A DNA stretch of 64,000 nt from Candidatus Cloacimonadales bacterium (GTDB lineage Bacteria > Cloacimonadota > Cloacimonadia > Cloacimonadales > JAFGVF01). The position numbers and the translations under genes were made by a program. Below, one piece after another: positions 31,633 to 48,062 of this stretch. How positions within the stretch are numbered: the first letter of the stretch is position 1; every line of letters starts with the position of its first letter. The stretch lies in NCBI GenBank assembly GCA_963678315.1, contig OY782781.1:928001-992000 (forward strand). The letters run 5' to 3'. Below the pieces are notes generated by a model. The model was given only the letters and a program-made list of their open reading frames with translations. It was not told the origin of the DNA and did not search any database.

Positions 31633-33010
31633 ACGTTTATTTCTATTGTTTGTAGCCTTGGCTACAACACTTGTTGCATGGGCTGATGATTTGAGAATTA
31701 GTGTGGAAGGGCTGAATTTCTTTGAAAAAAGCGGTAGAACTATTATTGATGTTAATTATTCTATAAAATACAAGAATTTAGGCTTTAAATTCAATGAGAA
31801 GAATAAGATTGCAGTGGCTAATTTAAAAGTTGAATGCGCTGTATATAACAAATCAGGAGTCCTATTAAGAGAAGATTTTTCAGACAAGATAGTTGTTACT
31901 AATGAAAAAGATATCAAATCTGATAGCAAAGTGCATAACAGTCGTTATAGTTTCGATTATGAAGGTGGAGGAAACAATATTCTTCTTAGGTTTACTGATC
32001 TTGTTTCTGGCGATAGCTATGTTTATAAAGAAGTCTTAAAATCTATTTCACAGAATAAGATTTCAAGCATTGAACTTAATAATTTTGTTCAGGATAAGAA
32101 AACAAATACAAGTCCTCAGCTCTATAGGGGAGAGATTCTTTATAATTCTAATCCTGAGAGAGTATTCTATAAAGAACTTTCAGACAGTCTATATTGCTAC
32201 TTCCAACTTAATGATTTAAAAAAGGCTTCTAGATCAGAGTGGTCTTATAACTATACAATCACAGTCCGTGATTCTAATGGCGAAAAGCTTTTTACAGAAG
32301 ATAGACTTTCTGAGTCTAACAGTGAAATAGCTTCTATTGTGCATGGAATAGGAATCCAAAATCTCGACAATGGATTATATACAATTACTGTTGAAAATAC
32401 TGAATATGCAGAAAATAATATCAGCAGAACCGATTTCTCAATATCTGATTTTGCAGGAGAAATGATTTCCATGCTGAATGACCCAGAAGAAGAGTTCTTC
32501 TTAATTAAGTACTTCGGCTATGATGAAACTTCAAGAAGATGGGAAAACTTTCCTAGAAGTAGAAAGATTAAAGAGATAAATAAGTTCTGGAATATCTATT
32601 CAACTAAAATGAATATGTCAGTAAATTCATTAGACGAAATTCTAAAAGAAAGAATTGAATATGCTAACCTTAAATTCTCTTCAAAAACACCTGGTTGGAA
32701 GTCTGACAGAGGTAAAGTCTATATTCTATATGGCGCTCCAGATGATATAGATAAGTATCTTGTTGGTGAAATGGATGCAACAGATCAAAGTGACCTTGAT
32801 TCACAAATCAATAGAGCTGCAGTCTTTAACGATAGAGAATATGAAATTTGGCGATATACTTCTAGTAGAATTGCTAGCTATACTTTCTTTGATACACGAC
32901 TAGATAATAGCCACAAATTAATCTACATCTATAATGACCCAAATATGGAAACTTCGGCTGATTATAAGTTCTATCTGGGACAAGACTTTGATGAGGATGT
33001 GCTAAAGTAG
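31622..33010 (+). CDS. GWxTD domain-containing exported protein (likely start ATG 31622)
   Basis: MIIKRLFLLF signal peptide; GWKSDRGKVYILYGAPD. Confidence 0.85.
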   Translation: MIIKRLFLLFVALATTLVAWADDLRISVEGLNFFEKSGRTIIDVNYSIKYKNLGFKFNEKNKIAVANLKVECAVYNKSGVLLREDFSDKIVVTNEKDIKSDSKVHNSRYSFDYEGGGNNILLRFTDLVSGDSYVYKEVLKSISQNKISSIELNNFVQDKKTNTSPQLYRGEILYNSNPERVFYKELSDSLYCYFQLNDLKKASRSEWSYNYTITVRDSNGEKLFTEDRLSESNSEIASIVHGIGIQNLDNGLYTITVENTEYAENNISRTDFSISDFAGEMISMLNDPEEEFFLIKYFGYDETSRRWENFPRSRKIKEINKFWNIYSTKMNMSVNSLDEILKERIEYANLKFSSKTPGWKSDRGKVYILYGAPDDIDKYLVGEMDATDQSDLDSQINRAAVFNDREYEIWRYTSSRIASYTFFDTRLDNSHKLIYIYNDPNMETSADYKFYLGQDFDEDVLK

Positions 33011-34194: not shown

Positions 34195-34296
34195 AAATTT
34201 AAAGAAAAAACTTGACTAGTAGCTGTCAACGTCTAAAATTAGAAAGGTATAGAAAATAAAAAAAACTAACATAAGTATACTTAATAAGGAGAGGGA

Positions 34297-35310
34297 ATGC
34301 GAAAAGTTAAGTTATTGTTTTTGATTTTAATGTTGTTATTGGTTAATGTTATAAGTGCATTACCGTTTGGAACTTTGGGTAATATAGATGTTCCTGATGG
34401 TTTTGTTAGTCCTGCAAATAGAATTCAAGTGAACTTTGCCTCATATTTAAGAGATGGTAAAGTTGATTTTAATGATGAAAATGCAGATTATGAATATAAC
34501 TATGTTATTCAAGCTCGCTATGGTTTATTTGATAGAGCTGATATTGGTTTTGTATATACTGGAGATGAAGTATTTTACGCTAATTTAAAATTCAAGTTAA
34601 TTGAAGAAAATGATGAATATCCTGGTATTTGTATTGGTGTTGATAACTTATTCTCAAAAGTTGATACTGATTATAAAAAACAATTAGAAGAACATCCAGA
34701 AGAATTGGAAGATATCCAAGATGCTGATACTTATGAAAGAAATTCTTTCTATGTTACTGCTTCTAAAGCATGGGCATTTACTGGTGTACCTGTCTTTGAT
34801 GAAATGCAAACATATGTAACATTAGGTATGGGTGTTAACCGTTTTGTAGGCCAAAGAGATTTAGCTAAAGATTTTAACGGTTTATTCGGTTCTGTTGAAT
34901 TCCGTCCAAACGATTCATATAGTTTCTTTACTGAACAATCAGGTCACGCTATAAATATTGGTGCTCGTTATTCTTGGAATAATTTTGATTTCCAATACTC
35001 AATATTAGAAATAGAAGAATTTATTAAAGAGAATGATGATAACCTCAAAATGGCTTTAAATATCAACTTTAACATTAATAACTGGGTTAAAGAAGATACT
35101 GGTAAAAGATTTGATAATCGTACAGGTGCAAGATCTGTTGGTAGAAGAACTTCTGAATTTAAGGATAGTCAATTACGTGGCCAAAGCATCTTAGATAGAA
35201 TTAATGCCTTGAAACAACAAGAACAATCTTTAGATAAAGCAAATGATGTAGATACTATTGTCGATGAAGAGGATATTGATGATTTAATCAATGAAATGAT
35301 TGAAGAATAG
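34297..35310 (+). CDS. YjbH-like exported/outer-membrane beta-barrel protein with acidic coiled-coil tail
   Basis: Signal peptide; FGTLGNIDVP, alternating amphipathic strands, PGICIGVDNL, FYVTASK. Confidence 0.55.
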   Translation: MRKVKLLFLILMLLLVNVISALPFGTLGNIDVPDGFVSPANRIQVNFASYLRDGKVDFNDENADYEYNYVIQARYGLFDRADIGFVYTGDEVFYANLKFKLIEENDEYPGICIGVDNLFSKVDTDYKKQLEEHPEELEDIQDADTYERNSFYVTASKAWAFTGVPVFDEMQTYVTLGMGVNRFVGQRDLAKDFNGLFGSVEFRPNDSYSFFTEQSGHAINIGARYSWNNFDFQYSILEIEEFIKENDDNLKMALNINFNINNWVKEDTGKRFDNRTGARSVGRRTSEFKDSQLRGQSILDRINALKQQEQSLDKANDVDTIVDEEDIDDLINEMIEE

Positions 35311-35337
35311 ATTGTAATATAAAAATAAGTAGGAAAT

Positions 35338-38300
35338 ATGTATAATAAAAAGAAGATTATTCTTGTTCTTCTTGCAGTAGTCTCTATTATATTTTTATAT
35401 TCTCAAGATAACCAAGCTTCTGATATAAATGTTGATTCTGAACTACAACAGAAGAAAAAAATAGAAAAAGATAGAATAGAAAAAGTTAATCAGCTATTAA
35501 ATTCAAGCCAGATTGCTGAAGTAGATTCTTTATATAAAGAAGATGAAAGAATATACTTTAGTTTAATAAGAAGTGGAGATAAACAATTAGCAAATTTCTA
35601 TAAAGATATGATGAATAAAGCATATCGTAATGTTAGAGCTTTGCAAGATGATCTATATTATCTTGACTGTTTTTCATATATTCTTACTAAAAAATGGGAA
35701 TTGGCTGAAGTAAAAACTGCTGATTTTCTAAAGCAATATCCACAGAGTAATGTAACAACAAATATTTTGAAGTTTAGAAAGAAAGCTCTTTTTGAATTAG
35801 GAAGATATGAAGATTATGTTACCCTAGTTGAAGCATCATCATTAGCAACATCTGCGGGTGCAAAGTTTGAATATGCTCAAGCTTTATATAATCTTGAGCG
35901 TTATGATGCTGCTCAACAATTATTAGAAGCGGTAGTAGCTGCTGACGATGTTAAGTATAAATTACGAGCTTTAGCTACTATGGGTTTAATCTCTGCTGCT
36001 AAAGGTAAGTACCAAGAAGCTATTGGAATTTTCACCGTTATTGAACAAGAATTCCCTATAGATACAAAGTATATGGACTTTGTGATTTTATCACAAGCAC
36101 GTCTACATGCACAGATTGGTGAAAATACTTTTGCGACTGAGTATTATAGAGCATATAACGAGCTTACTCAAGGTCAAGATGCAAAAGTTTTATACGAACT
36201 GGCAGTTCTACAAAGAAAAAATGGCAATTTAGATAAGGCTAAAGCTGCGTTTGAAAAAGTTTTAACTCTAAATACAGGTAAAGCTTATTATACTCCTGCT
36301 ATATACAATTTAGTTTTAATTGATCAAGAGCTTAATAATGGGGCTCAATCCTCTAATATTATTTCTAGTTATCAAACAAGAGTTGATAATTACTTTAATT
36401 TAGTAATTCAAAATAGAAACTTAGTTAGCGAAATCCAATCACTAAGGAATAAAGCTTTAGCTGAAGCTGATACTTTACAACTTAAGAATTTAAAGGATAA
36501 GATTGCTGAAAAAAGTATCGCATTGATGGAGAATCAAGATCAGCTTGTTGCTCAAAAAGGTTATGTCTCAAATAGAGATCTTGTATTAATCAAGAGAATT
36601 GAAGAAAAGTTTATTACTCGCAACAGTATATATGTTGAAAGAAAAGAACTAAATGAGCTTATCAGAGACTTCCCTAAAGATGAATTAATCCTAAAGGCAG
36701 ATTATAATCGCGAAAAAGCTGAGATATTTAATATTGCTGAACTTGCAGAAATATTCTTATCAGATATAGAAGAGCCAACTATACAACAGGAAGATAGTGC
36801 ATTATACTTCTCGGAAGAACTATATAATTATATGGTAACTATTGCATTTTTAGAAGAAGATTTACTTGATAACACTCTCTCTAGTAATGAAAAAGCTCAA
36901 ATTAGTAATTTAGTAAAAACTAATAGTGATAGTCTTGTAACATTAAAACTTCGAGGTAAGGTAGAATTAGCTGATATCCCAAATATGGAAGAGAAGTTAG
37001 CTCAGTTCGAAACAAGAGCGGAAGAACTAATTTTCCAAGAAATGGATAAAGAAGAAAAGCGCCAAATTGTTATTGACGGGTATTATGATTTCAAGGCTAA
37101 CAAAGAAAATACTAGCTTATTGGCAAGTGTAGATAACTATGACGAAAAACGTGTAAATAAGTTTAAAAGAGCTTTTAATAAATACAATAAGCAAAAACTT
37201 AATATTGAAGAATATCTCCAATTTGTTTCATTAGAATCAGAATTCCAAAAAATTACAAAATCCTATAATGATAAATTTGCCCAAATGCAAATTGACACGA
37301 CAATTGTAATAAATCGTGAACAAGAGTATGCTATTAGGGAAAATCTATATAATAGAATAAATAGATTTATTTACCAGCATGAAGATTTTGAGAATAACTA
37401 TAAACTATATTTCAATATGGCAGAATTAAGTGCTTTCTTTGATGTTAATAATTACCAATTAAATTACAACAATTATAAAAAAGTGTTAGATCTTAAACCT
37501 GATTTTGCTCTCAAAGATGTTGTTATTTATAACTTAGCATTTAACAAACAAGCCTTGATTGATAGAGAAATAGGAAGAAAAAAAGAAGAGTTGATGAAAA
37601 GTCCAAATTACTTCACATCTGCTCTACCAAATGAGGTAAAGAAAACAGCTGAAAAATATAGCGAAGTAATCAAAAATTATTCTGAAATAGTTAAGGATAA
37701 AGATTCTACATACCGAGTAGAGGCAGTTTTCAGACTAGCAGACTTGTATTATGATTTAGCTGTTGACTCAGACGATATTCTTAAGTATATAGACAAATCA
37801 ATAACTTTGTTTACTATAGCAATGAAAATTGGTGACCAAAAACAACAATTAGAAGCATTATATCAAAGAGCTTGGCATTATATGGCCAAAAGTGAATATG
37901 ATAATGCTATGCTAGATTTAAGAGTATTGCTAGAAAACAAAGACCTATATTCTGAAGATGAAGAGTACAAATATACTTCAGCTTATGATGTTGCGGCATA
38001 TTCATTGAATCAAATTGGGATGTATAATGATACTTTAAGAACAGTTTCATCATATATGAAAGATAAACTTTTTCCAAATTTCGACAAGAACGATGCTTCA
38101 ATAATTTATAATAAAGTTCTTAACTCAAAGAAAAGTACAGACGAGTTCCTACAGGTTATTGACCTTTATAAACTCTATACAGAAGTTCATCCTTTAGATA
38201 TTGTTAACCCTACTTTCTGTGATTCTATAGTTTATGAATACCAAACTCACACACCTGAGATTGGAGGAATCGATTCCTTAAAAGCTAAAAGTAGATTGGT

Positions 38301-41300
38301 TTATCTTGAATCTGTCGAAAGATATGGTTATAATTCAGAATGGTATGATTTTAACAAAGAAGATCCTAAAATAGTTGATTACACAAAATCTGTTAAAAAA
38401 GGATATGAAGGTTATATTTTCCCTGAACTGATTAAACTTATTCAAGAAAATCCTTCTCAAGAAGATATTAGTCAGTATAATGATATGATAGAAGAATATG
38501 CTAATTATCAAGGTGTTACCATTGAGGAAAGAAATAAGTTCTTACCTCTTGTAAAAGAAAATAGTATGGCCTTAGTTAATACTTATGTTGCTAGTAAGAA
38601 CGATACATTAGCTTACGCATGGGGTCAGAATGAAATATACAAATATTTAGAAGTTAATCCTGAAGACAAGCAAAGAGATGTTCTGGAACAAAATGCTTAT
38701 TCTTACGCTGCTAAATATAGGGCTTATGTAGATACAGTAGCTTTTGATAGCTTGCAATATAGTCCACAAGATGTGGAAAATATTAAACTTAATACCAAAA
38801 GAAATTATATTTTAGCTGCTAATAGATATATTGAATATAACACTAAAAACAATATTACTCAAAAAGATGATAAAATATATAACATTTTGTATTTCAGAGG
38901 TCTTGCTAAAGTTGATATTGGAGATATTGAGGGAGCTAGAAATGATTTTCTTAAATGTGATAGCTTAAATATCTCAAATGAAGATAAAAAGAATATTTAT
39001 ACTCAGTTGGCTTTAATATACAAAGATAGAGATGAAATAGATACATCTAATGATTATTTTGCTAGAGCATCTAGATATGCTTCTCTTGAAGAGAAAGAAG
39101 AATATGAAAAAGCAATCTATTCTAATAGAAAAGAAAAAGTTAAGCTTCTAGAAGAAAAGGGTGATCAAGTTGCTGCAGCGAAAGAGTTAGAAATTATGGC
39201 TAATTCAAGTGTTGCTACAGAAGAAGATAAATCCCTAATCAAGCAGGCTGCTAGATCAAAATATCTTGAGGCTGGTGATTATGAAACAGCCATTACCAGA
39301 TTAGTCGAAGAATTTAACAAACAAAATGAAGTAGATGGTGCTTGGGAATATATGGGACAAGCTATTTATATAGCCGACTCTCTTAAGGTTATGGACAAAA
39401 AAATAGAACTTGAAGATATGTTTATCTCTAAGTTCCCATACGATTTACAAACATTTGTTTTCAAACAAAATAGAATCAATGAAGTAAAAGAGGAAGGATC
39501 TACAAAATATAACCCTGATTTAGTGGCTTCAAGATACATGGAACTATATGATCTTGCTACTAAGGATGGTGATAAATTAGATATAGGGGAAAATAAAGCC
39601 CTTGATTTCTATTATTTCTCAATTTCTTATAAAGTCAAGTCTATGTCTGATGAAGATAAGGCTGAAGAATGGCTTAGATTCATTGATAGATTCCCTAACT
39701 ACACCTACACAACATCAACTGGTGCTCTTGTAAATAGTATTGCAATACAAAGTTTAGTATGCAAATTATACAAAGATAGTGGGAATACTGAGAAATATAT
39801 TGAAAATGCGAAGAAGCTATTTGAAATGGACCCTACATCAATTCTATATCTTCAATATGCTGCTGAGCAAATTCAAAAAGTTGATACTGATATCAGAAAG
39901 CTATATAGAAAAAGAGATTGGCAGCCAATGCTAGCTAAGATTGAAGAGTTTAACACTCTTTCTGACAAGTTCATTAATGAAGGTATCAAAGCAGATGATT
40001 TAACTATCAGTCAATTAGATGATGCTTATAATGGATTTGAAACTGACTACAGGAATGAACAGAAGAAAAAAGCTCTATTAGCTGAAATAGAAAGTAATTA
40101 TGAAGAATTTTTAACCTTTACAGATGTTGATTTTAATGAAAGAGTTAGAGTGTCAAATTTAACTACTTGGAATAGGCATCTTTATAAAGGAGAGAAGCGG
40201 ATTCCAACGTTTATTGAGCTTGTTGATTCTGAAATTGCCAAGATTACTGACGAAGTTTCTAAAATCGCTCAATCAGAACTATTAGATCCAGCTGAAAAGA
40301 AAGAAGCATTTTATAAATATTTCTATAACATATTTAATATTGAAAAATATGCATCTGAATTAATTAAAGCACAAGTCAATAAGTATGTCAACTTACCAGA
40401 AGGTCAGTTTAAGAAATATCAATTGAAGCTGGCTACAGACCCAACTACTACAATTGAAGAAAAAAGACAAAAGATCTTTGATTATCAGCAGAGTATAATT
40501 CCTTATGGTGACCAACTTTCATCTACATATTTTAGCAGATCTGTAGAAGATGCTAGATCAATATATACTAAATTTATTGATGGTTTTAGCTCAAAGTATC
40601 CAAAATCGGATGATATTGTTGATTACTTAGCTTCATTGAATGCTTATGAAGTTCAACCAAAGGAAATTGAAAGTTTGCTTCCAGATAGTTCATGGAGAAA
40701 AGACTATTCTGCTATAACTGAATCTACTTATAATGATTCTCTTAGAACATTTGCTGTTTATGGCATTGCTTCAATGGATACTTTAGTTGTTGAAAATGAT
40801 ATAAATTGTCCTATAGCTCCACTATTTGTGAGATATAGAATAATTACAGATGATGTTGATTTGATGGGGCAAAATATTGCAGATTTCCAAATATTTATTA
40901 ATGATAATCTTATCCAGTTTAATGAACCAGAATATGATGGTTTTATTGAAGATACCTTAGCTACTGTCCAATACTTAGACAGGTATTTAATTAATCATGC
41001 TAATATCAATCCTCAAAGCTATAGACCTGGCATCAATAAGATGAAAATAAAAGTACTAAATAGTAAAATGAGTAGTTTTAATGTTGGACTCCAGATGGAA
41101 GTAGTATATAACGAAGAAGAATTATTTATATATAATAACTCTCAATTAGTATCAATAGTTTCTGATGAAAGTTGGGTAGTATCAGATTCTGTATCTGCTT
41201 TAAACCCTGGATCAAATCTTTTTGAGAATGCTCAAGTAAGTAACTTTGAAGAGGATTATTACCAAATAGCATCCTTTAGTTCTTCAGTAGCTTTACCTAT

Positions 41301-41757
41301 TTGGAGTGCTAAGAAGATTGAAGAAGCTGCTTTAGATACACTATATGTTGTAAATGATTCTCTTAATGTCATGGCTGATTCACTTGTAGTTAATGTTGTT
41401 TCGGATTCTTTAATTGCACAAACTGATAGTCTGCAAGCAGATGAGACTGAGGACTTAACAGAAGAAGAAAAAACTTATGTAAAGATTTTCAAGAAAGAAT
41501 TTGATTTAACTGGTGAAGTTATTGAAGCAAATCTTTACTTCTTAGCTAAAAACATAGCTGACATTTATTTGAACGGTGAGCAGATTGGTTTTGAAGAATA
41601 CTATTATTGGGATGAAAACGAAGCTCCGTCTGTCTACATAGATCCAGCTCAACTTCTCGAAGGCAAAAATGAATTAATCTTTATTGTATATAGTCCTACT
41701 AAAGATAATGGGTTAGTTGTAGACTTCAAAATCAAAACAATAACTAATAGGAGATAA
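35338..41757 (+). CDS. Giant exported TPR/coiled-coil protein with C-terminal jelly-roll-like domain(s); GltD/E-like by context
   Basis: N-terminal signal/TM; TPR motifs (FEYAQALYNLERY, EALYQRAWHYM); C-terminal SDESW...IW...FKKEF...IYLNGEQIG...LLEGKNELI. Confidence 0.75.
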   Translation: MYNKKKIILVLLAVVSIIFLYSQDNQASDINVDSELQQKKKIEKDRIEKVNQLLNSSQIAEVDSLYKEDERIYFSLIRSGDKQLANFYKDMMNKAYRNVRALQDDLYYLDCFSYILTKKWELAEVKTADFLKQYPQSNVTTNILKFRKKALFELGRYEDYVTLVEASSLATSAGAKFEYAQALYNLERYDAAQQLLEAVVAADDVKYKLRALATMGLISAAKGKYQEAIGIFTVIEQEFPIDTKYMDFVILSQARLHAQIGENTFATEYYRAYNELTQGQDAKVLYELAVLQRKNGNLDKAKAAFEKVLTLNTGKAYYTPAIYNLVLIDQELNNGAQSSNIISSYQTRVDNYFNLVIQNRNLVSEIQSLRNKALAEADTLQLKNLKDKIAEKSIALMENQDQLVAQKGYVSNRDLVLIKRIEEKFITRNSIYVERKELNELIRDFPKDELILKADYNREKAEIFNIAELAEIFLSDIEEPTIQQEDSALYFSEELYNYMVTIAFLEEDLLDNTLSSNEKAQISNLVKTNSDSLVTLKLRGKVELADIPNMEEKLAQFETRAEELIFQEMDKEEKRQIVIDGYYDFKANKENTSLLASVDNYDEKRVNKFKRAFNKYNKQKLNIEEYLQFVSLESEFQKITKSYNDKFAQMQIDTTIVINREQEYAIRENLYNRINRFIYQHEDFENNYKLYFNMAELSAFFDVNNYQLNYNNYKKVLDLKPDFALKDVVIYNLAFNKQALIDREIGRKKEELMKSPNYFTSALPNEVKKTAEKYSEVIKNYSEIVKDKDSTYRVEAVFRLADLYYDLAVDSDDILKYIDKSITLFTIAMKIGDQKQQLEALYQRAWHYMAKSEYDNAMLDLRVLLENKDLYSEDEEYKYTSAYDVAAYSLNQIGMYNDTLRTVSSYMKDKLFPNFDKNDASIIYNKVLNSKKSTDEFLQVIDLYKLYTEVHPLDIVNPTFCDSIVYEYQTHTPEIGGIDSLKAKSRLVYLESVERYGYNSEWYDFNKEDPKIVDYTKSVKKGYEGYIFPELIKLIQENPSQEDISQYNDMIEEYANYQGVTIEERNKFLPLVKENSMALVNTYVASKNDTLAYAWGQNEIYKYLEVNPEDKQRDVLEQNAYSYAAKYRAYVDTVAFDSLQYSPQDVENIKLNTKRNYILAANRYIEYNTKNNITQKDDKIYNILYFRGLAKVDIGDIEGARNDFLKCDSLNISNEDKKNIYTQLALIYKDRDEIDTSNDYFARASRYASLEEKEEYEKAIYSNRKEKVKLLEEKGDQVAAAKELEIMANSSVATEEDKSLIKQAARSKYLEAGDYETAITRLVEEFNKQNEVDGAWEYMGQAIYIADSLKVMDKKIELEDMFISKFPYDLQTFVFKQNRINEVKEEGSTKYNPDLVASRYMELYDLATKDGDKLDIGENKALDFYYFSISYKVKSMSDEDKAEEWLRFIDRFPNYTYTTSTGALVNSIAIQSLVCKLYKDSGNTEKYIENAKKLFEMDPTSILYLQYAAEQIQKVDTDIRKLYRKRDWQPMLAKIEEFNTLSDKFINEGIKADDLTISQLDDAYNGFETDYRNEQKKKALLAEIESNYEEFLTFTDVDFNERVRVSNLTTWNRHLYKGEKRIPTFIELVDSEIAKITDEVSKIAQSELLDPAEKKEAFYKYFYNIFNIEKYASELIKAQVNKYVNLPEGQFKKYQLKLATDPTTTIEEKRQKIFDYQQSIIPYGDQLSSTYFSRSVEDARSIYTKFIDGFSSKYPKSDDIVDYLASLNAYEVQPKEIESLLPDSSWRKDYSAITESTYNDSLRTFAVYGIASMDTLVVENDINCPIAPLFVRYRIITDDVDLMGQNIADFQIFINDNLIQFNEPEYDGFIEDTLATVQYLDRYLINHANINPQSYRPGINKMKIKVLNSKMSSFNVGLQMEVVYNEEELFIYNNSQLVSIVSDESWVVSDSVSALNPGSNLFENAQVSNFEEDYYQIASFSSSVALPIWSAKKIEEAALDTLYVVNDSLNVMADSLVVNVVSDSLIAQTDSLQADETEDLTEEEKTYVKIFKKEFDLTGEVIEANLYFLAKNIADIYLNGEQIGFEEYYYWDENEAPSVYIDPAQLLEGKNELIFIVYSPTKDNGLVVDFKIKTITNRR

Positions 41758-41758
41758 T

Positions 41759-42022
41759 ATGAAAAAGTCAATTTTAATCTTACTTTTATTAACTATCTTA
41801 GCTATTTCATTTCTTAATGCACAGACAACAGACAATGATAATGAAGGAAATACTAATGATGGAAGATATATTGTACAGACATCTGATGATGATATAATTA
41901 GATTTGGATTATTTTTCCCTGACAACGATATTGTTAGAGATAGAACACTTACCAAAGATGAATACATTTTCAAAACATACTTTTTAGATAAATTATTGAA
42001 ATCAAATAGAATTTTATATTAA
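41759..42022 (+). CDS. Small exported protein, GltF/CglF-like by size, position and C-terminus
   Basis: 87 aa, signal peptide, C-terminal FLDKLLKS; lies between the TPR gene and the ExbB-like gene. Confidence 0.5.
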   Translation: MKKSILILLLLTILAISFLNAQTTDNDNEGNTNDGRYIVQTSDDDIIRFGLFFPDNDIVRDRTLTKDEYIFKTYFLDKLLKSNRILY

Positions 42023-42036
42023 TATTAGGAGAAAAC

Positions 42037-42870
42037 ATGAAAAAACAAGCATTTTTAATTTTGTTGTTGGTTTTATTCAGTTTTAGTTTTTTGTTAGCTC
42101 AAACTGATGATGCAAAAGTAGGTAATGATACCGAAGAGGTTGTTGTTGGAACAGAACAAGGCGCTACTGATACTGCTAGTGAAAAAGTTGAAGGACAAGA
42201 TAAAGATGAAACTAGTCCTACAAACCTATTTAGAATTTATGATAATTCTGGTGTTTACGCTCACTTTATTTTAGCTGTATTCTTATTGGCTGTATTCTAT
42301 GGTCTGTATAGATTCTATATTCTATATATCAAAGAAAAATTAGATGTGGAAGCTTTCCATTTGAAACTTAAAGGACTTGTTAAGTCAGGTTCTATCAAAG
42401 AAGCTATTAATGCTGCTACACTTGTTAAAAGAACTACTTTAGGTCAAGTTTACCGCATTGGTTTGTTTGGATACAGAGATGCAAAAGAATCAGGTAAAAC
42501 TGGTGAAAGCTTGAAAGAAGAAGTTCAAAGAGCATTTAATGAAGCTGCTTATCAAACAATTCCTGTTATTGATAGAGGTTTAGGTTGGTTTGACTTGTTA
42601 GCTCAGGTTTCTACTTATCTTGGTCTACTTGGTACAATTATGGGTCTTATTGAAGCTTTCGGTGGCTTAGGTGGCGGAAACTCAGATAGTAATGCTTTGA
42701 CTGACGGTATTCAAAAATCAATGGGAACAACAGCGCTAGGTCTTATTGGTGCTATTATTATTCAATTTATCAAAGGTGCTCTAAGTGCACGTGCAGAAAA
42801 AATAATTAATGAAGTTGATGAAAAAAGCGTTAAAATAATGAACGTTATCAATAACCAAATCCAGGACTAG
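42037..42870 (+). CDS. MotA/TolQ/ExbB proton-channel protein (AglR-like)
   Basis: TYLGLLGTIMGLIEAF and GIQKSMGTTALGL TM motifs. Confidence 0.93.
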   Translation: MKKQAFLILLLVLFSFSFLLAQTDDAKVGNDTEEVVVGTEQGATDTASEKVEGQDKDETSPTNLFRIYDNSGVYAHFILAVFLLAVFYGLYRFYILYIKEKLDVEAFHLKLKGLVKSGSIKEAINAATLVKRTTLGQVYRIGLFGYRDAKESGKTGESLKEEVQRAFNEAAYQTIPVIDRGLGWFDLLAQVSTYLGLLGTIMGLIEAFGGLGGGNSDSNALTDGIQKSMGTTALGLIGAIIIQFIKGALSARAEKIINEVDEKSVKIMNVINNQIQD

Positions 42871-42874
42871 TACT

Positions 42875-43447
42875 ATGAGACGAACTCCTGCTGTTGGAAC
42901 AAAAAAGAAAACATATAGTCCTTCAGAAGGTAGAGCTAGACAAGGTGATCATGGTCATAAAGAAGTTGATTTAGTGCCAATAATGAACCTGTTTGTAACA
43001 ATAATTCCATTATTGCTACAGATGGTTGTTTTGGTAACCATTGCTTATGTTACACTAGATTTAACAACCCCTCAAGCTGGAGGTGGTACTGGCAGTGAAA
43101 GCAATGAAGAAGAGACTCCAAAAGAGATTACTGATCTGGAGCTAGTAATAAACGTTGGTGAAGATAACAAAGAGTTTTACAACTTTGTAAAAAATGGTGA
43201 AATTGATACTGACGTTGCTAATATACCTGTAGAAAATATGGATAAGTTAGCTGATGCATTAAGAAATTATAGAAGTATAATGTTCAATGATCTTTTTAAT
43301 GATAATGATGTTGATAAACATAAAGATAAACAGCTAACAATACAAGTTTTCCCGAAAGATTATGTGGAATTTGGAACATTCGTTAAAACAATGGACTTAT
43401 GTAAGAAATTGAATTTTGGCGATATTATTCTCAAAGAGATTAAATAA
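42875..43447 (+). CDS. ExbD/TolR-family protein with Asn at the canonical TM Asp position
   Basis: DLVPIMNLFVTIIPLLL TM; C-terminal VEFGTFVKTMDLC. Confidence 0.85.
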   Translation: MRRTPAVGTKKKTYSPSEGRARQGDHGHKEVDLVPIMNLFVTIIPLLLQMVVLVTIAYVTLDLTTPQAGGGTGSESNEEETPKEITDLELVINVGEDNKEFYNFVKNGEIDTDVANIPVENMDKLADALRNYRSIMFNDLFNDNDVDKHKDKQLTIQVFPKDYVEFGTFVKTMDLCKKLNFGDIILKEIK

Positions 43448-43459
43448 GGAGTGTGATAA

Positions 43460-44059
43460 ATGAGTGTAACTAGAAGACATAAAGGCTCTGCACAAATGAG
43501 TATCACCTCTTTGATAGATATTCTTACTATTCTATTGTTATTTGTTATGGTTAACGTTTCTTCTGACCCTGATTTTACACCTGATGATGTGGAGCTAGAA
43601 GAATCCATAATTAACGAAGAAATAGATGCAGAAAGCGAAGTGATTACTTTAAATGTAAGTTACACAGGCCTTGACAAAGGAGTTATAACTTACACAAATA
43701 AGGCAACTGGTGAGCCAATTGAGATTATGAGATTGGAAGAAATTAACAATACAAATGATGAAGAGTTTAAAAACTTGTTAAGCTCTAGTGTTATTGCTTT
43801 GGACGAGCAAATATATGCTGTTTTAGGTGATAATAATGAAAAACCAATTGTTGTGAAAATCAAAGCTCATAAGAAAGTTCCTTTCAAATATATAAATGTT
43901 GTAAAAACACTACTATTAGGTGTATGGAATGGTAGTGAAAACAAAGTACCAAACCTTTCTAAGGCTAATAACTTTGTTTTATATTTTGCTACTTCATTTA
44001 TTAAAGCAGAAACAGATCAGTACAGATCCGTTCTTTCTGATTATGGATTAGGAGGTTAG
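43460..44059 (+). CDS. ExbD/TolR-family protein (AglS-like), TM Asp present
   Basis: ITSLIDILTILLLF; IKAHKKVPFKYI. Confidence 0.85.
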   Translation: MSVTRRHKGSAQMSITSLIDILTILLLFVMVNVSSDPDFTPDDVELEESIINEEIDAESEVITLNVSYTGLDKGVITYTNKATGEPIEIMRLEEINNTNDEEFKNLLSSSVIALDEQIYAVLGDNNEKPIVVKIKAHKKVPFKYINVVKTLLLGVWNGSENKVPNLSKANNFVLYFATSFIKAETDQYRSVLSDYGLGG

Positions 44060-44060
44060 A

Positions 44061-45566
44061 ATGCGATCAGATTTATTCTTAATTTATAATTATCGGGGTA
44101 AACAATTTGTTATCGCAAAAGACGATCCTGAAATTCACAGACTGTTTCGCTTAGGAAAGAAGCTTGTAATAGGCTCAGATGCCAAGAACTTATGGCAAAT
44201 TTATGATAATAAGTTCCCAAAGAAGTATGTTTTTGTAGAGAAAGGTCAAGATTCCTATTTTGTAAATCTACAAAAAAATATGTCTATTGTTGTCAGTGAT
44301 GGCAATAAGGAACTAACATTAGAAGAATTAAAATCTAAAGGCTTATTAAAGAATAACAAGCTATATCTTAAAGAAGGATATAGTGGTTCAGTTCATATAA
44401 ATGAAAACACTGAGATTAAATTTAGATTTGTTAGAGGAAGTGTTGCATTAACTGAAGACCAGAAGAGAATGGTAGCTAACTTTACCAAGAGACCTCCATT
44501 AGCCTCTGACCAAAAGATTACAAGAAGTCTTATCTTTATTGTGCTTATACTTGTTATTGCTTTTGCTTCATATATGAACTATGTTTATGAACCAGTGGTA
44601 AAAAAATCTGTTTTTGAACAAACAAGAGATAATCTAAAGCGTGAGATGACAGTTTCTGCTGAAGTTAAAGTTAATACTCCTACTAATGTTGCGACAGTTG
44701 AAAAAACAGGTGGTGAGGGAGAAAAGATTGACGAAACTCCTCAAGAAGTTACACCAACTGATGATCAAACTACTAATGCCAATACTATGAGTAATGCAGA
44801 TGCTTTAGCACTAATTAGTGCTACCCAAGTAGATTTAGTGAATCAAACAATGAGCACACAGAATACTCAAGTTGCGGGAATGCCTTCAGGAGGTGGAGGT
44901 GGTGGAGCAATTAGTGGAAGCCTTATTTCGAGTACAATGAGTGGACTTAAAGGTAACAATAATAGAAAAACCACAATTAACATTGGAAATGTTAGTACTT
45001 CAACAAGTATCGACGATAGAATTAATGCTCTAGCTGCAGGACGTGGTTTGGACACCGGTTTAGCTGCAGTGGGCGCAGGTGGAGAATCTGTTACAACTGT
45101 TGCTGAAGGTCGTGCAACTAATCTAATAGCATCTACAGACATAAATGCTATAAAAGATTATAATGCAAATGTTGGTAAGAATCCAGGTGGTGGTATTGAA
45201 GATACTGGAACTGCAAATGTTGCTGTGTCAGGACTTCCTAAGACAGTTGATCCTAAAGCTATTATTGAAGAACCTACTGTAACAGGTGAAACTGCACAGC
45301 AAAGTAGAGTTAAACAATGGTTCACAGGAACAATGGGACCTCAAATATCTGGTTTATACAATACTTATAAGTTAACTAAGCCGATACGTGGTTACTTAGA
45401 TTTTACATTTAAAATTGTGAAAGGAAAAGTTGTGAAAGTAACTATTACTGGTTCTATTAAAGATAAAAAATTCATTAATGAGTTAAGGAAAATTCTAAAT
45501 AAAAAAACTATCACAGGTTTAGTCGATTATGACAGTAAGCCAATTCGAAAGAACTTTGGTAATTAA
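44061..45566 (+). CDS. GltG/AgmX-PglI-like TonB-type energy transducer (cytoplasmic beta domain, one TM, Gly/Thr-rich linker, TonB-C-like end)
   Basis: KLVIGSD...FPKKYVF...GSVHINENTEIKFRFV; TM SLIFIVLILVIAF; C-terminal YNTYKLTKPIRGYLDFTFKIVKGKVVKV. Confidence 0.65.
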   Translation: MRSDLFLIYNYRGKQFVIAKDDPEIHRLFRLGKKLVIGSDAKNLWQIYDNKFPKKYVFVEKGQDSYFVNLQKNMSIVVSDGNKELTLEELKSKGLLKNNKLYLKEGYSGSVHINENTEIKFRFVRGSVALTEDQKRMVANFTKRPPLASDQKITRSLIFIVLILVIAFASYMNYVYEPVVKKSVFEQTRDNLKREMTVSAEVKVNTPTNVATVEKTGGEGEKIDETPQEVTPTDDQTTNANTMSNADALALISATQVDLVNQTMSTQNTQVAGMPSGGGGGGAISGSLISSTMSGLKGNNNRKTTINIGNVSTSTSIDDRINALAAGRGLDTGLAAVGAGGESVTTVAEGRATNLIASTDINAIKDYNANVGKNPGGGIEDTGTANVAVSGLPKTVDPKAIIEEPTVTGETAQQSRVKQWFTGTMGPQISGLYNTYKLTKPIRGYLDFTFKIVKGKVVKVTITGSIKDKKFINELRKILNKKTITGLVDYDSKPIRKNFGN

Positions 45567-45600
45567 ACTTATTAATCAATAATAACAATATAACTTAACT

Positions 45601-45640
45601 AAGGGGATTTACTCGCAAGAGTAATCCCCTTTCCCTTTTG
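45601..45640 (+). terminator. Rho-independent terminator of the TPR-ExbBD operon
   Basis: AAGGGGATTTACTC-GCAA-GAGTAATCCCCTT followed by pyrimidine/T run. Confidence 0.8.
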
Positions 45641-45695: not shown

Positions 45696-48062
45696 ATGAA
45701 GCATTATATAATTAGTTTAAACATGGAGCTCGATAGAGAGTTCATCTATACTTCTAAAAAGGAATTAACATTAGGTTTACGGTGCATTGTTCCTTTTAGG
45801 AATTCTATACGTACAGGAATTGTTCAAAGTGAAGCAGTATCTGTTGATAATTCAATACAGTATAAAGAGATTTTAGAAGTTGTAGAAGACAAGCCTTTAC
45901 TCACTTTTGATTTGTGGAAATTAAGTTTCTGGATAGCTAATTATTATGCAACAAGTATTGGTAAGGTTTTATTTTCTATGCTACCTAAAGGTCTGTCCTT
46001 AGAAATATTTACTGATATTAGATTGAAAGGAGACCATAAAGAGCTAGGAAATAAGCTAGATTTATATGAGATGCTTAAAGATGAAGAATGGCATGAACTA
46101 AATTATATATTCAATCAGTTAGGAAGTAGGATTAGTTACAAATTAATTGAGGAGCTAGAGAAAGCAGGGATAATTGAAGTAAAAAGGCACTATGACAAGA
46201 AAGTAAAGGTAAAGAAAGCAAATTTTATTTTTGTAGAAGGCAATGATAAAGATGTGAAGTTATCTCCTAAGCAAAAAGAAGCCTTTGAACTTATAAGAAG
46301 CAGTGAAAAGATTCTCGCATTAACAGATATTGCTAAAGCTTTTTCATATTCAATTATTAGAGCCTTGCAGGAAAAGGGCTTAATCAAGATAATTCCCCTT
46401 GAAGTTAGTGATAATATTGATTTACTTCCTACAAGGAAAGAACGCAAAATCGTTACGTTAACAGATGAACAAGCTAGGGTAATCTCCAATATCGAAAAGG
46501 ATTTAGAATCATACAAGGTTCATTTACTTTACGGGATAACTGGTTCAGGTAAAACAGAAGTCTATATTAGGATAATGGAAAAAGTCTTGGCTAATGGTAA
46601 GAATGCCCTTTTGTTAGTCCCTGAAATATCCCTTACTCCTCAAACCGTTGACCGTTTCTACAGTGCTTTCGGAGAGAATATAGCCATTCTACATAGTAAT
46701 CTAACGGATAGAGAGCGTTTCCATGAATGGAAAAGAATCAAAGCTAATGAATGTAGAATAATCATCGGGGCTAGATCTGCTATATTTGCTCCCTTGCAAG
46801 ATATTGGACTTATCATAGTTGATGAAGAGCATGAGGGTTCTTATAAGCAGGAGAATAGTCCACGCTACAATGCTAGAGACTTAGCTGTTATGAGGGGAAA
46901 AATAAATGTATGCCCTGTTATTCTAGGTTCAGCTACTCCTTCCCTGGAATCTTGGTTAAACGCTTTAAATGGACGTTATATCCTCAATAAAATGTTAAAA
47001 CGACCTACAGGAATAACTCTTCCCACAGTTAAAATCATTGACTTGAAGAAAGAAAAGAATGACCTTTTACTATCGGAAGACCTGTTGAAAGCTATAAAGG
47101 ATAAACTAGAAAAGAAAGAACAGGTTATCCTCTTTCAAAATCGAAGAGGATATTCTAATTTTATGCAATGTAAAAGTTGTGGTGAGCTGATTAAATGTCC
47201 GCATTGTGATGTTAGCCTGCATTATCATAGTTATACAGAAGAAGTCATCTGTCATTATTGTGGTTATAAGAAACCTACTCCAAGAAAGTGTCCTTCCTGT
47301 GGAGGATATTCTTTCATGTATGGAGTAGGGGGAACTCAAAAGCTTGAAGAACAGGTTAGATCATGTTTTCCAACTGCTAAAGTTATGAGAATGGACTCTG
47401 ATACCACAAGCAAGAAGAGTTCTTATAATGACATGTTTGAAGCAATGTCGTCTAATTCTGTAGACATACTTCTAGGAACTCAGATGATATCTAAAGGCTT
47501 AGATTTCCCTAATGTGACCCTAGTTGGAGTTATCTTGGCTGATATATCTTTAGGCCTAGCTGATTTTAGAGCATCGGAAAGAACCTTCCAATTGTTAACG
47601 CAAGTGGCTGGACGTTCAGGAAGAGGTGATAAAGTTGGACAAGTTATAATACAGACTTATATGCCTGAGCACTATGCTATAGTTAATTCATCTAATCAAG
47701 ATTTCCTTAAAATGGCTGAAATGGAATTACACATGCGGGAAAGTTTATTTTATCCACCTCATTTTAGATTAGCTCGAATCTTATTCTCTCATCATACAGA
47801 GAAAACTTTATTAGAATCTTTTAATAAAAATAGAGAGTTCTTTCAGCAACTAAGCTCTATTTATTCATTCCAAGAATTAAAAGTATTGGGACCAGCTCCT
47901 GCCCCAATTCCTAGAATTAGTAATAAATTCCGCTATCACTTAATCTTCAAAGGTAAGGATGTAAGTGTTATCTCTTCTGTGATTAAATTCTTCAAATCAA
48001 ATTATAAGGCTAAATCCTCAATTAAAGTTGCTATCGATATTGACCCTATATCTCTCTTATAG
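45696..48062 (+). CDS. priA: Primosomal protein N'
   Basis: GITGSGKTEVY, VDEEHE, LGSATPS, four CxxC pairs, KGLDFP, QVAGRSGR. Confidence 0.98.
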   Translation: MKHYIISLNMELDREFIYTSKKELTLGLRCIVPFRNSIRTGIVQSEAVSVDNSIQYKEILEVVEDKPLLTFDLWKLSFWIANYYATSIGKVLFSMLPKGLSLEIFTDIRLKGDHKELGNKLDLYEMLKDEEWHELNYIFNQLGSRISYKLIEELEKAGIIEVKRHYDKKVKVKKANFIFVEGNDKDVKLSPKQKEAFELIRSSEKILALTDIAKAFSYSIIRALQEKGLIKIIPLEVSDNIDLLPTRKERKIVTLTDEQARVISNIEKDLESYKVHLLYGITGSGKTEVYIRIMEKVLANGKNALLLVPEISLTPQTVDRFYSAFGENIAILHSNLTDRERFHEWKRIKANECRIIIGARSAIFAPLQDIGLIIVDEEHEGSYKQENSPRYNARDLAVMRGKINVCPVILGSATPSLESWLNALNGRYILNKMLKRPTGITLPTVKIIDLKKEKNDLLLSEDLLKAIKDKLEKKEQVILFQNRRGYSNFMQCKSCGELIKCPHCDVSLHYHSYTEEVICHYCGYKKPTPRKCPSCGGYSFMYGVGGTQKLEEQVRSCFPTAKVMRMDSDTTSKKSSYNDMFEAMSSNSVDILLGTQMISKGLDFPNVTLVGVILADISLGLADFRASERTFQLLTQVAGRSGRGDKVGQVIIQTYMPEHYAIVNSSNQDFLKMAEMELHMRESLFYPPHFRLARILFSHHTEKTLLESFNKNREFFQQLSSIYSFQELKVLGPAPAPIPRISNKFRYHLIFKGKDVSVISSVIKFFKSNYKAKSSIKVAIDIDPISLL

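Follow-up and report, generated by a model that had tools for sequence, protein, structure and literature searches.

The gliding machine of Myxococcus was built on an ion-driven core complex; what does this complex do outside gliding bacteria? This question has been standing since 2011, when a core complex of non-gliders, one Fibrobacteres member included, came into print (PMC3169522, in the excerpts available); the same excerpts of Luciano et al. give its group B genes as aglR, aglQ, aglS, gltC, gltD, gltE and gltG. The operon described here, which lies in a stretch of 64,000 nucleotides (the window) from a Candidatus Cloacimonadales bacterium, adds material to the question: a whole lineage with a compact, nearly universal core cluster bearing a predicted outer-membrane part of its own. 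An earlier reading made from the letters of the window (the sequence-only reading) took the operon for an Agl-Glt-like envelope motor of undescribed function in this lineage, and overrated its novelty because the Glt/Agl core complex of non-gliders had been published in 2011 (PMC3169522, as excerpted). Cloacimonadota are not among the lineages listed in the excerpts of that paper, and among the literature matches listed no paper links Cloacimonadota with the Agl-Glt system.

In our view the seven genes probably specify a complete force transducer that spans the envelope and runs on ion-motive force, and that would be an FCB-type variant distantly homologous to the Agl-Glt core complex. Judged by sequence comparison, the operon is a divergent relative of that ion-driven complex, and the homology proposed in the sequence-only reading is borne out by the ExbB tree, the paired ExbDs, and the profile alignments of p7 with GltG-like proteins and of the p2 scaffold with GltD-like proteins, which are presented in turn below.

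Layout, signals and conservation of the operon

Seven open reading frames, p1 to p7, follow one another co-directionally on the + strand from 34297 to 45566, with intergenic gaps of 27, 1, 14, 4, 12 and 1 nt (Table 1), exactly where the sequence-only reading had placed them. The domains matched by Pfam are MotA_ExbB, ExbD in two proteins, and TPR models; no TonB-dependent receptor, TolB or Pal domain is matched in the seven proteins, as had been noticed before. Signal peptides were read from the translations of p1, p2, p3 and p4.

Table 1. Predicted features of the seven-gene operon, in positions of the window
Feature	Positions	Strand	Evidence
Promoter-like site, TTGACT-16-TAAAAT	34212..34239	+	10/12 match; within the 102-nt gap upstream of p1
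p1, exported outer-membrane beta-barrel, 337 aa	34297..35310	+	AF2 model, Foldseek
p2, exported TPR protein, 2139 aa	35338-41757	+	Pfam TPR at residues 172-316
p2, N-terminal third, TPR module TPR_A, about aa 1-660	35338..37317	+	hhalign; split gene in relatives
p2, C-terminal two thirds, aa 661-2139, GltD-like TPR scaffold and extension	37318..41757	+	hhalign
p3, exported protein, 87 aa	41759..42022	+	found in 18/18 loci
p4, ExbB/TolQ/AglR-type stator subunit, 277 aa, N-terminal signal peptide	42037..42870	+	PF01618, trees
p5, first ExbD/TolR paralogue, 190 aa, Asn for transmembrane Asp	42875..43447	+	PF02472, 2.9e-07
p6, second ExbD/TolR paralogue, 199 aa, transmembrane Asp kept	43460..44059	+	PF02472, 3.9e-07
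p7, GltG-like transducer, 501 aa	44061..45566	+	predicted folds, hhalign, NF033768
Intrinsic-terminator-like hairpin and U-rich tail	45601..45640	+	direct folding

A promoter and a terminator of its own had also been ascribed to the unit. The terminator is well founded as a structure: the hairpin at 45601-45631 folds with a dG of -18.2 kcal/mol (z -4.2), none of 200 shuffles folds equally well, and a U-rich tail follows it. The consensus terminator scan did not pick it up, presumably because of a one-base bulge in the stem. The promoter box does exist, but it counts for little as evidence, since promoter-like sites across the region (58 observed against 62.9 +/- 9.3 expected) are not in excess over chance. 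In a wastewater library, whose RNA nature is a guess, contigs of 151-368 nt cover portions of p2, p4 and p7 as well as the p4/p5 junction; three RNA runs of an organism labelled C gave no coverage.

The operon sits among conserved housekeeping genes, with UPF0102 on one side, priA on the other and dnaE near, and Pfam on the window found neither a TonB-dependent receptor within or adjoining the operon nor polysaccharide genes flanking it in this genome. The sequence-only reading had made its proposal depend on a gene order kept in relatives, and the order is identical in all 18 relatives examined. Within the order almost every genome has the operon, in a single copy, and the p7 family is present in 117 of the 151 genomes of the phylum, with few or no matches to the p7 query in three phylum families (f7, 0/6; f14, 0/6; f15, 1/13).

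Stator genes and transducer

That the operon encodes one ExbB/TolQ and two ExbD/TolR proteins, as had been proposed, is confirmed by the matches of p4 to PF01618 MotA_ExbB (E 2.9e-21) and of p5 and p6 to PF02472; scores fall far short of the tolQ and tolR equivalog cut-offs. The nearest relatives of p4 outside Cloacimonadota belong to Gemmatimonadota, Bdellovibrionota, Myxococcota (including Anaeromyxobacter), Fibrobacterota, KSB1, Caldithrix, Cytophagia and some Gammaproteobacteria. Related loci were retrieved with two peptide patterns derived from the Cloacimonadota ExbB alignment, so the retrieved ExbB set is biased. In the related loci that were checked, TPR proteins matching GltC and GltE precede ExbB-ExbD-ExbD, which are followed by matches to NF033760 GltG (4.4e-21 to 9.1e-43; 75-147 bits against an equivalog cut-off of 650) and NF033768 AgmX/PglI. 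The GltG-like, GltD-like and AglR-like sets were defined by neighbourhood and by NCBIfam scores far below the equivalog cut-offs, and consist of proteins other than the Agl and Glt proteins of M. xanthus.

In a careful tree of 54 rows the Cloacimonadota ExbBs form a clade with full support (UFBoot/SH-aLRT 100/100), which is nested with all 24 pattern-retrieved ExbBs of core loci (UFBoot 95/SH-aLRT 92); the AglR-type set is here defined by locus neighbourhood and M. xanthus AglR itself is absent. A quick tree of 99 rows gives the same picture (SH-aLRT 91). The genome has three ExbB paralogues of its own, in a Ton system adjoining a TonB-dependent receptor, a Tol-like system and MotAB, all of which fall outside the AglR-type clade; branching with canonical Ton or Tol systems had been named beforehand as an outcome that would speak against the proposal. 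The Cloacimonadota branch is long, with 1.0-1.6 changes per column. These trees assign p4 to the AglR-type branch of the ExbB/TolQ family.

By profile comparison p5 and p6 are ExbD paralogues of ancient divergence: across 60 related loci, the profile of the first ExbD always scores best on the first ExbD gene, and in 56 loci the profile of the second prefers the second gene. In the first paralogue, Asn replaces the transmembrane Asp in 18/18 Cloacimonadota rows and in 30 of the 52 remaining rows. All 73 rows of the second paralogue keep the Asp, and the canonical ExbDs of this genome keep it in every case. As far as the alignments go, the Asn is a derived trait common to the Cloacimonadota operon and related core loci, unlike the situation in M. 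xanthus, where AglQ and AglS are both reported to keep the membrane Asp (PMC9389320). Such an Asn in one of two paralogues is a simple sequence trait which predicts a heteromeric stator, and an obligate p5/p6 heterodimer, if true, would settle hetero- versus homodimer pairing of the AglQ/AglS type for this family.

The last gene, p7, is according to its model a GltG-type protein, with an FHA fold (aa 1-125; Z 8.8 in structure comparison) next to a transmembrane helix (aa 149-175), a disordered linker of about 210 residues rich in Gly, Thr and Ser (aa 199-407), and a TonB-type C-terminal domain (aa 409-499). The model of residues 409-501 compares with the E. coli TonB-CTD at Z 6.5 (rmsd 2.6 over 81 residues), and the TonB-CTD comparisons as a group give Z 6.5, 6.4 and 6.0. 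This is the arrangement that the sequence-only reading had drawn, including the TonB-C or AgmX/PglI fold whose absence it would have taken as a refutation; NF033768 (AgmX/PglI) is matched by 9/16 p7 orthologues. The p7 of the window itself does not reach NF033768 or NF033760 and has no match to Pfam TonB_C. Alignment of the p7 family with GltG-like proteins by hhalign yields 99.6% and E 2e-24 over 406 columns, and a p7-type protein is found by profile in 29 of the 60 related loci. A word-index homologue search with p7 returned p7 as its sole match, for which the low-complexity linker is the probable cause. M. xanthus GltG has two FHA domains according to the excerpts of PMC11761067, whereas p7 has one.

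Periplasmic and outer-membrane parts

The relation of the giant TPR protein p2 to GltD, suggested earlier, gains strong support from profile alignment: TPR_B against 20 GltD-like proteins from core loci gives prob 100 and E 3.8e-44 over 763 collinear columns (1-856 against 1-834). By this measure p2 is a fusion, the C-terminal two thirds of which are collinear with GltD-like proteins; the GltC-like and GltD-like parts are fused in 6/18 relatives and form two genes in the other 12, with an N-terminal gene of ~670-690 aa. TPR_A aligns collinearly with GltC-like proteins at E 1.4e-19, which is hardly above generic TPR likeness because it still gives 2.4e-15 against GltD-like proteins; the N-terminal module is possibly GltC-like, and the GltC model NF033756 matches none of the seven operon proteins.

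The GltD-like scaffold takes up the first ~850 positions of TPR_B, and an extension of ~560 aa lies beyond it. For this extension there are weak PDB profile matches to beta-galactosidase and GH modules (E 0.005-0.5) and Protein Atlas feature scores of 0.83-0.86, which are leads from entries with no stored model. Support for the jelly-roll end seen in the sequence-only reading is weak; the extension probably ends in a beta domain of galactose-binding-like type. Beyond Cloacimonadota, one Fibrobacteres locus (L054) was the sole one seen to have the extension.

The small protein p3 carries conserved ..P(D/E).. and C-terminal ..SN(K/R)xLY motifs. It was rightly described as exported, and it is conserved; its earlier link to GltF is fainter. 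In position and size it corresponds to the GltF-like genes of other core loci, where such small proteins are present in many cases outside Myxococcota and Bdellovibrionota, and hhalign against the GltF-like family (8/24 members of which match NF033764) gives a weak match (prob 50, E 1.6e-04, 28 columns). The CglF model NF033764 touches p3 of the window faintly (E 0.087), the one match that any gliding NCBIfam model gives on the window proteins; with 18 of 19 p3 family members free of it, we put it down to chance or a signal-peptide effect. A complex prediction that paired mature p3 with the C-terminal domain of p7 (score 0.00, mark 0.32) speaks neither for nor against binding.

On its AF2 model (pLDDT 69.1), p1 is an outer-membrane beta-barrel of 12 strands with a disordered stretch and then a long C-terminal helix behind it, and Foldseek with this model matches barrel proteins throughout (best FapF, E 6.5e-07, TM about 0.35). 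The barrel is small, lacks a plug domain and is co-inherited with the motor genes. Of the YjbH-like barrel announced in the sequence-only reading, the barrel stands, while the family label is tentative: p1 of the window has no Pfam match, PF06082 YjbH included, 5/16 of its orthologues match PF06082 at E <= 0.05 (best E 3.8e-04), and the homologue in a Gemmatimonadota locus (L048) scores 27.4 bits (cut-off 24), with 65 of the 658 model positions aligned. YjbH/GfcD-type outer-membrane proteins are linked to exopolysaccharide and group 4 capsule loci. The likeness of p1 to them lies in this weak sequence match and the barrel fold; unlike them, p1 has about half the length of the Pfam model and ends in a long helix. 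No stretch of the barrel alignment is conserved enough for a pattern-based search of related loci. The same barrel occurs also in related loci of Gemmatimonadota and Cytophagia, which may be easier to work with.

Proposed mechanism and possible output of the predicted machine

Set beside the core complex of 2011, the operon has in common with it one TolQ-like and two TolR-like proteins, a GltG-type protein of FHA, TM and TonB-like parts, and long periplasmic TPR proteins, all in one operon and one genomic cluster. It differs in starting with a 12-stranded, weakly YjbH-like barrel, in the fusion of the GltC-like and GltD-like parts in this genome, in the C-terminal extension of its GltD-like protein, and in GltE. 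A counterpart of GltE, which the sequence-only reading had counted among the TPR parts of the Myxococcus machineries, was found neither in the operon (ORF list, NCBIfam) nor in the genome, where NF033758 gives one generic TPR match (32.6 bits, cut-off 225); the same model matches in 12/14 control genomes. With the Myxococcus Agl-Glt gliding machine and its spore-coat relative Agl-Nfs, the motor, GltG and GltD parts would be of common ancestry.

The mechanism that we propose is drawn by analogy with ExbB5-ExbD2, TolQRA and the published AglR5QS-GltG model. The M. xanthus model, in the excerpts of PMC11761067, has an AglR5-AglQ-AglS stator to which GltG is fastened through its FHA domain and TM helix, a long GltG linker, the TonB-like domain on GltD, and GltF as a bridge. 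In Cloacimonadota, p4 would form a pentameric ring around one p5/p6 heterodimer, in which p6 alone would carry the protonatable Asp, and ion flow would turn or cycle the stator. The FHA domain and TM helix may tether p7 to the stator, the linker would carry work across the periplasm to the TonB-like domain, and this domain, with the p2 scaffold and p3 as a small adaptor, would act on the p1 barrel at the outer membrane.

The putative output is most likely the handling or organising of a surface or outer-membrane-linked glycan or polymer, over nutrient uptake or locomotion, and outer-membrane tethering is the main alternative. The hints of a glycan are the weakly YjbH-like barrel, the signs of a GH-type jelly-roll at the end of p2, and the Wza/Wzc/glycosyltransferase genes directly downstream of two related core loci (L054 and L093).

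Tethering would mean the same machine with a Tol-Pal-like output, in which the motor tethers the outer membrane or pulls it inwards and so serves envelope integrity and division; we hold this improbable. Tol-Pal (TolQRA-TolB-Pal-CpoB) may be the closest functional analogue of the operon, with a motor, a long periplasm-spanning transducer and CpoB-like TPR parts in common; GltG has been likened to TolA (PMC11761067 and PMC9946355, as excerpted), and the CpoB/YbgF model TIGR02795 matches part of p2 (E 5.6e-05). The near-universal, single-copy occurrence in the UPF0102-priA-dnaE setting and the lack of any TolB or Pal above curated cut-off in this 97.9%-complete genome fit such a role. However, the operon itself encodes no TolB or Pal, YbgF likeness is commonplace among TPR proteins, OmpA-family proteins and a separate ExbB-ExbD-TolA-like trio (L140) are found elsewhere in the genome, and some families of the phylum have few p7 matches or none. 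About as improbable is the broader idea that we have here an old housekeeping machine, kept vertically in FCB and Gemmatimonadota, which would do Tol-Pal-like work or move surface glycans with an obligate single-Asp heterodimer stator.

A true gliding or adhesion machine, moving the cell or its adhesins as in Myxococcus, is quite unlikely. Homology to the Agl-Glt machine core argues for it, as do a motor, a transducer and an outer-membrane part that are all there; yet according to the excerpts of Luciano et al. (PMC3169522) motility takes more than the core genes, and most carriers are not known gliders. The operon also has no counterpart of the Myxococcus-specific GltA/B/H/I/J/K and CglB, all NCBIfam equivalog cut-offs being missed, and the GltJ, GltE and GltC models match none of its seven proteins at E <= 0.1.

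Very improbable, finally, is an ordinary but divergent Ton system energising outer-membrane uptake: the operon has an ExbB, two ExbDs and a protein with a TonB-fold end, the gene count of the genome's canonical Ton locus with its two ExbD genes, and a stator family of 5:2 type, but its ExbB branches away from that locus, no TonB-dependent receptor lies in or beside it, p7 starts with a cytoplasmic FHA domain and is not matched by Pfam TonB_C, the first ExbD has Asn where both canonical ExbDs have Asp, and a giant TPR scaffold and a small plug-less barrel are co-inherited with the motor genes.

Layout and conservation of the operon

Seven open reading frames, p1 to p7, with intergenic gaps of 1 to 27 nt, constitute the operon, which is flanked by a divergent UPF0102 gene upstream and by priA downstream. 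Pfam recognizes p4 as its single MotA/ExbB protein (E 2.9e-21), p5 and p6 as ExbD proteins and TPR repeats in p2, and no domain of a TonB-dependent receptor, TolB or Pal is found by it in p1-p7, in agreement with the gene content given by the sequence-only reading; that the operon drives TonB-type uptake is unlikely. Against NCBIfam, the operon proteins gave tolQ/exbB matches, sub-threshold only, and a faint CglF match of p3 (E 0.087). Regarding the signals, the terminator proposed behind p7 is confirmed as a strong hairpin, and the proposed promoter box does exist, but such boxes are not above shuffle frequency, with 58 matches in the region versus 62.9 +/- 9.3 in shuffles.

Features of the window and of the loci compared with it
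Feature	Position	Strand	Details
Operon, p1-p7	34297-45566	+	seven ORFs
p1, barrel		+	337 aa
p2, TPR protein		+	2139 aa
p3, small exported protein		+	87 aa
p4, ExbB		+	277 aa
p5, first ExbD		+	190 aa
p6, second ExbD		+	199 aa
p7, GltG-like		+	501 aa
Promoter-like box	34212		TTGACT-16-TAAAAT, 10/12 match
Terminator-like hairpin	45601-45631		dG -18.2 kcal/mol, z -4.2
Best 'TolB' match of the genome	about 16920-17195 (G000:C1:944920-945195)		1030-aa frame
GWxTD-domain gene pair	30523-33010		369 and 499 aa
AAA_14/DUF4143 ATPase gene	48046-49170	-	convergent to priA
GC skew sign change	around 48-54 kb
STAS gene, Fibrobacteres MAG	L054:11165-11488		108 aa
Second frames with p7-C-terminal-like end, close relatives	G003:C1:2515676-2515948; G005:C1:1534463-1534714; G009:C1:2161453-2161683		~730-760 aa, E about 1e-08
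Canonical Ton locus, window's genome	L139, G000:C1:310000-322000
MotA-MotB locus, window's genome	L141, G000:C1:1595000-1607000		outside the window

Of 41 genomes, counting the window's own with 40 relatives, 33 contain a match to p7, and 18 of these loci, hand-picked to cover 10 families, were fetched. The order barrel-TPR-small gene-ExbB-ExbD-ExbD-p7 is identical in all 18, which answers the call for a synteny survey, and UPF0102 and priA flank the operon in most of them. A single gene encodes the TPR protein in 6 of these loci; in the other 12 it is split into two, of ~670-690 aa and ~1290-1510 aa. Sampled across the phylum, the p7-family profile matches 117 of 151 genomes, the counts by family being 68/69 in f4, 23/31 in f12, 1/13 in f15 and 0/6 in each of f7 and f14, where absences are valid for this query only. 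The nearest named relatives in the ExbB locus search are Candidatus Cloacimonadales or Cloacimonadota MAGs.

Relation to the Agl-Glt core complex

This type of system is already known as the core complex, whose description in 2011 included one Fibrobacteres member (PMC3169522, excerpt). What is new is Cloacimonadota as a lineage, the fixed pairing with a small barrel, shared with some loci of Gemmatimonadota and Cytophagia, the fused and extended TPR protein, a system lacking GltE, the ExbD bearing Asn, and the wide occurrence of GltF-like small genes; among the literature matches listed, none deals with an Agl-Glt-type system in Cloacimonadota.

A pattern-seeded search from the ExbB alignment retrieved 80 loci, 60 of them non-Cloacimonadota. 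The best ExbB loci after those of Cloacimonadota belong to Gemmatimonadota, Bdellovibrionota, Myxococcota (including Anaeromyxobacter), Fibrobacterota, KSB1, Caldithrix, Cytophagia and some Gammaproteobacteria, a spread close to the distribution of the core complex in the same excerpt. When 71 ORFs from 10 of the retrieved loci were scanned with NCBIfam, the protein 3' of ExbB-ExbD-ExbD in L085, L093, L101, L065, L054 and L052 matched GltG NF033760 (4.4e-21 to 9.1e-43) and AgmX/PglI NF033768, and upstream TPR proteins matched GltC (L085, L093) and GltE (L085), in all cases far under the equivalog cut-offs. Moreover, the Cloacimonadota first-ExbD profile has the first ExbD gene as its top match in every one of the 60 non-Cloacimonadota loci, and the second-ExbD profile the second ExbD gene in 56. 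A p7-type protein is seen by profile in 29 of the 60, many of these contigs ending early, and the profile of TPR_B (p2 residues 661-2139) matches GltD-sized TPR proteins.

Profile-profile comparison, made like the ExbB trees from sequences other than M. xanthus Agl/Glt and E. coli ExbB/ExbD/TolQ/TolR, aligns the p7 family with 9 GltG-like proteins over 406 columns (prob 99.6%, E 2e-24), spanning the N-terminal domain, TM helix and C-terminal domain, and TPR_B with 20 GltD-like proteins over 763 collinear columns (prob 100%, E 3.8e-44). TPR_A (about residues 1-660) matches 11 GltC-like proteins (E 1.4e-19); with 2.4e-15 against the GltD-like ones, the link lacks specificity.

The predicted model of p7 (mean pLDDT 63.6, folded parts about 90) consists of a beta domain of FHA fold (1-125), a TM helix (149-175), a disordered stretch (199-407) and a TonB-like end, which bears out the layout read from the sequence. 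The first domain resembles ArnA FHA (Foldseek E 3e-04; VIA-align FHA Z 8.8, rmsd 2.8 over 91 residues), and residues 409-499 resemble the E. coli TonB-CTD (Z 6.5, rmsd 2.6, 81 residues), N. meningitidis TonB (Z 6.4), FusB (6.0) and TolA-C (5.7), Z values that are middling by themselves. NF033768 is matched by 9 of 16 p7 orthologues (best E 3.6e-08), with no match for the window's p7. In the description of GltG, a central FHA sits beside the TM helix, the linker has ~124 residues and the end resembles a TonB-CTD (PMC11761067, excerpt); p7 agrees in layout, but the extra N-terminal FHA of GltG is missing from it. In close relatives there is also a second frame with a p7-C-terminal-like end, none being found in the window's genome by the same search, and ~130-200-aa frames carrying this domain occur in several other relatives.

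A quick-mode ExbB tree of 99 rows took p4 with 9 of 18 relatives' ExbBs (10 rows), all pattern-search ExbBs below 320 aa, the window genome's 3 other paralogues and 26 paralogues below 341 aa from five genomes carrying core loci, where 30 of 46 PF01618 matches had loci. Cloacimonadota form a clade (SH-aLRT 100) nested in one of 76 rows (SH-aLRT 91), which holds every pattern-search ExbB in the tree and 6 'paralogue' rows, 3 of them duplicating locus rows; outside it fall the remaining 20 paralogues, together with all 3 of the window's genome. A careful-mode tree of 54 rows, with p4 and 6 relatives (7 of 19 family rows), 24 of the 60 pattern-search loci and 23 paralogues, and with 3 duplicate rows, 3 very long branches and 4 paralogues above 340 aa excluded, supports the clade of Cloacimonadota and pattern-search ExbBs at 95/92 (UFBoot/SH-aLRT) and places Gemmatimonadota as sister of Cloacimonadota at 87/79. 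In both trees p4 branches apart from its genome's own Ton, Tol-like and MotA paralogues.

These paralogues belong to a canonical TonB-dependent receptor-ExbB-ExbD-ExbD-TonB locus, an ExbB-ExbD-TolA-like trio and a MotA-MotB locus. The first is followed by a 1036-aa protein without Pfam match and by one that is PorV-like (PF19572, E 1.1e-09), a hint of components of type IX secretion. In the last, the MotA-MotB(OmpA) pair adjoins a 461-aa protein with a FliG C-terminal domain, and an AAA_22 ATPase, a 925-aa Wzz/ParA-type chain-length or tyrosine-kinase-like protein and a LytR_cpsA_psr protein are also present; it looks like a stator-plus-FliG_C module linked to polysaccharide genes.

Stator residue, barrel and accessory proteins

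The first ExbD has Asn at the essential transmembrane Asp position in 18 of 18 Cloacimonadota rows. In 52 further rows, the residue is N in 13, S in 4, A in 1, G in 1, D in 3 and a gap in 1 for loci with a GltG-like protein, and N in 17 and D in 12 where this protein was not seen; most D rows are of Anaeromyxobacter or Bdellovibrionota type. The second ExbD keeps Asp in 73 of 73 rows, as do all three canonical ExbDs of the window's genome. In M. xanthus, by contrast, both AglQ and AglS are reported with the membrane Asp (PMC9389320, excerpt). We infer that here p5 and p6 must pair as a heterodimer to form the stator plug, with one protonatable site only. A gene for an anti-sigma-factor antagonist (STAS) lies between the two ExbD genes of the Fibrobacteres locus L054, and L062 and L087 have a gap of about its size.

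The model of p1 (pLDDT 69.1) has 12 strands forming a barrel, then about 40 residues of disorder and a helix spanning 298-336. Its Foldseek matches are barrels only (FapF, E 6.5e-07, TM about 0.35; KdgM/NanC-type barrels). Of the proposed YjbH-like barrel, the barrel stands and the YjbH likeness is weak. Core loci with an adjoining homologous barrel occur in Gemmatimonadota (L048, L076) and in a single unclassified MAG (L067), and iterating the profile once adds two Cytophagia MAGs (L094, L101). Within Cloacimonadota the C-terminal ~560 residues of p2 are conserved, and outside the phylum the profile of this extension matches only the GltD-like protein of L054 (domain E 1.5e-04). For the proposed jelly-roll end, the final ~90 positions give weak matches to beta modules of beta-galactosidase, rhamnosidase, GH2 and esterase type (E 0.005-0.5); leads from the Atlas are likewise of beta-galactosidase/GH-module kind.

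The exported p3 carries a ..P(D/E).. motif in 18 of 18 loci and a C-terminal ..SN(K/R)xLY in most. Many non-Cloacimonadota core loci have at its place a small exported protein with a KP(E/Q) motif, often ending in ..PF, and 8 of 24 of these match CglF NF033764 (best E 4.4e-06), CglF being GltF (PMC4488436, excerpt). The two families align over 28 columns on the P-containing motif (prob 50%, E 1.6e-04), which is only suggestive of a relationship.

Proposed mechanism and output

Beyond the homologies and folds, which are shown, the mechanism may be drawn by analogy with ExbBD-TonB, TolQRA and the published AglR5QS-GltG model. Ions flowing through p4(5)-p5/p6 would do work on p7, whose linker would bridge the periplasm, and the TonB-like domain of p7, with the p2 scaffold and p3, might pass this work to the p1 barrel. 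The output favoured is handling of a surface or outer-membrane-linked glycan, because the barrel is YjbH-like, the beta module is of GH type, and Wza, Wzc and glycosyltransferase genes stand immediately downstream of L054 and L093: Wza-like export genes come after the GltG-like gene in both loci, and in L054 so do Wzc-like and glycosyltransferase genes. In Myxococcus, spore-coat polysaccharide is transported by the same motor in combination with Nfs proteins (PMC3858216, excerpt). A Tol-Pal-like role is the main rival, since no TolB or Pal scores above cut-off in the window's genome. That the operon drives locomotion is unlikely.

The best 'TolB' match of the genome is a frame with TolB-like beta-propeller repeats, at 49.7 bits with TIGR02800, far under cut-off. 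Elsewhere in the window, the two adjacent GWxTD-domain genes (PF20094, E 4.2e-14 and 3.2e-11) lie between dnaE and the upstream neighbour of the operon.
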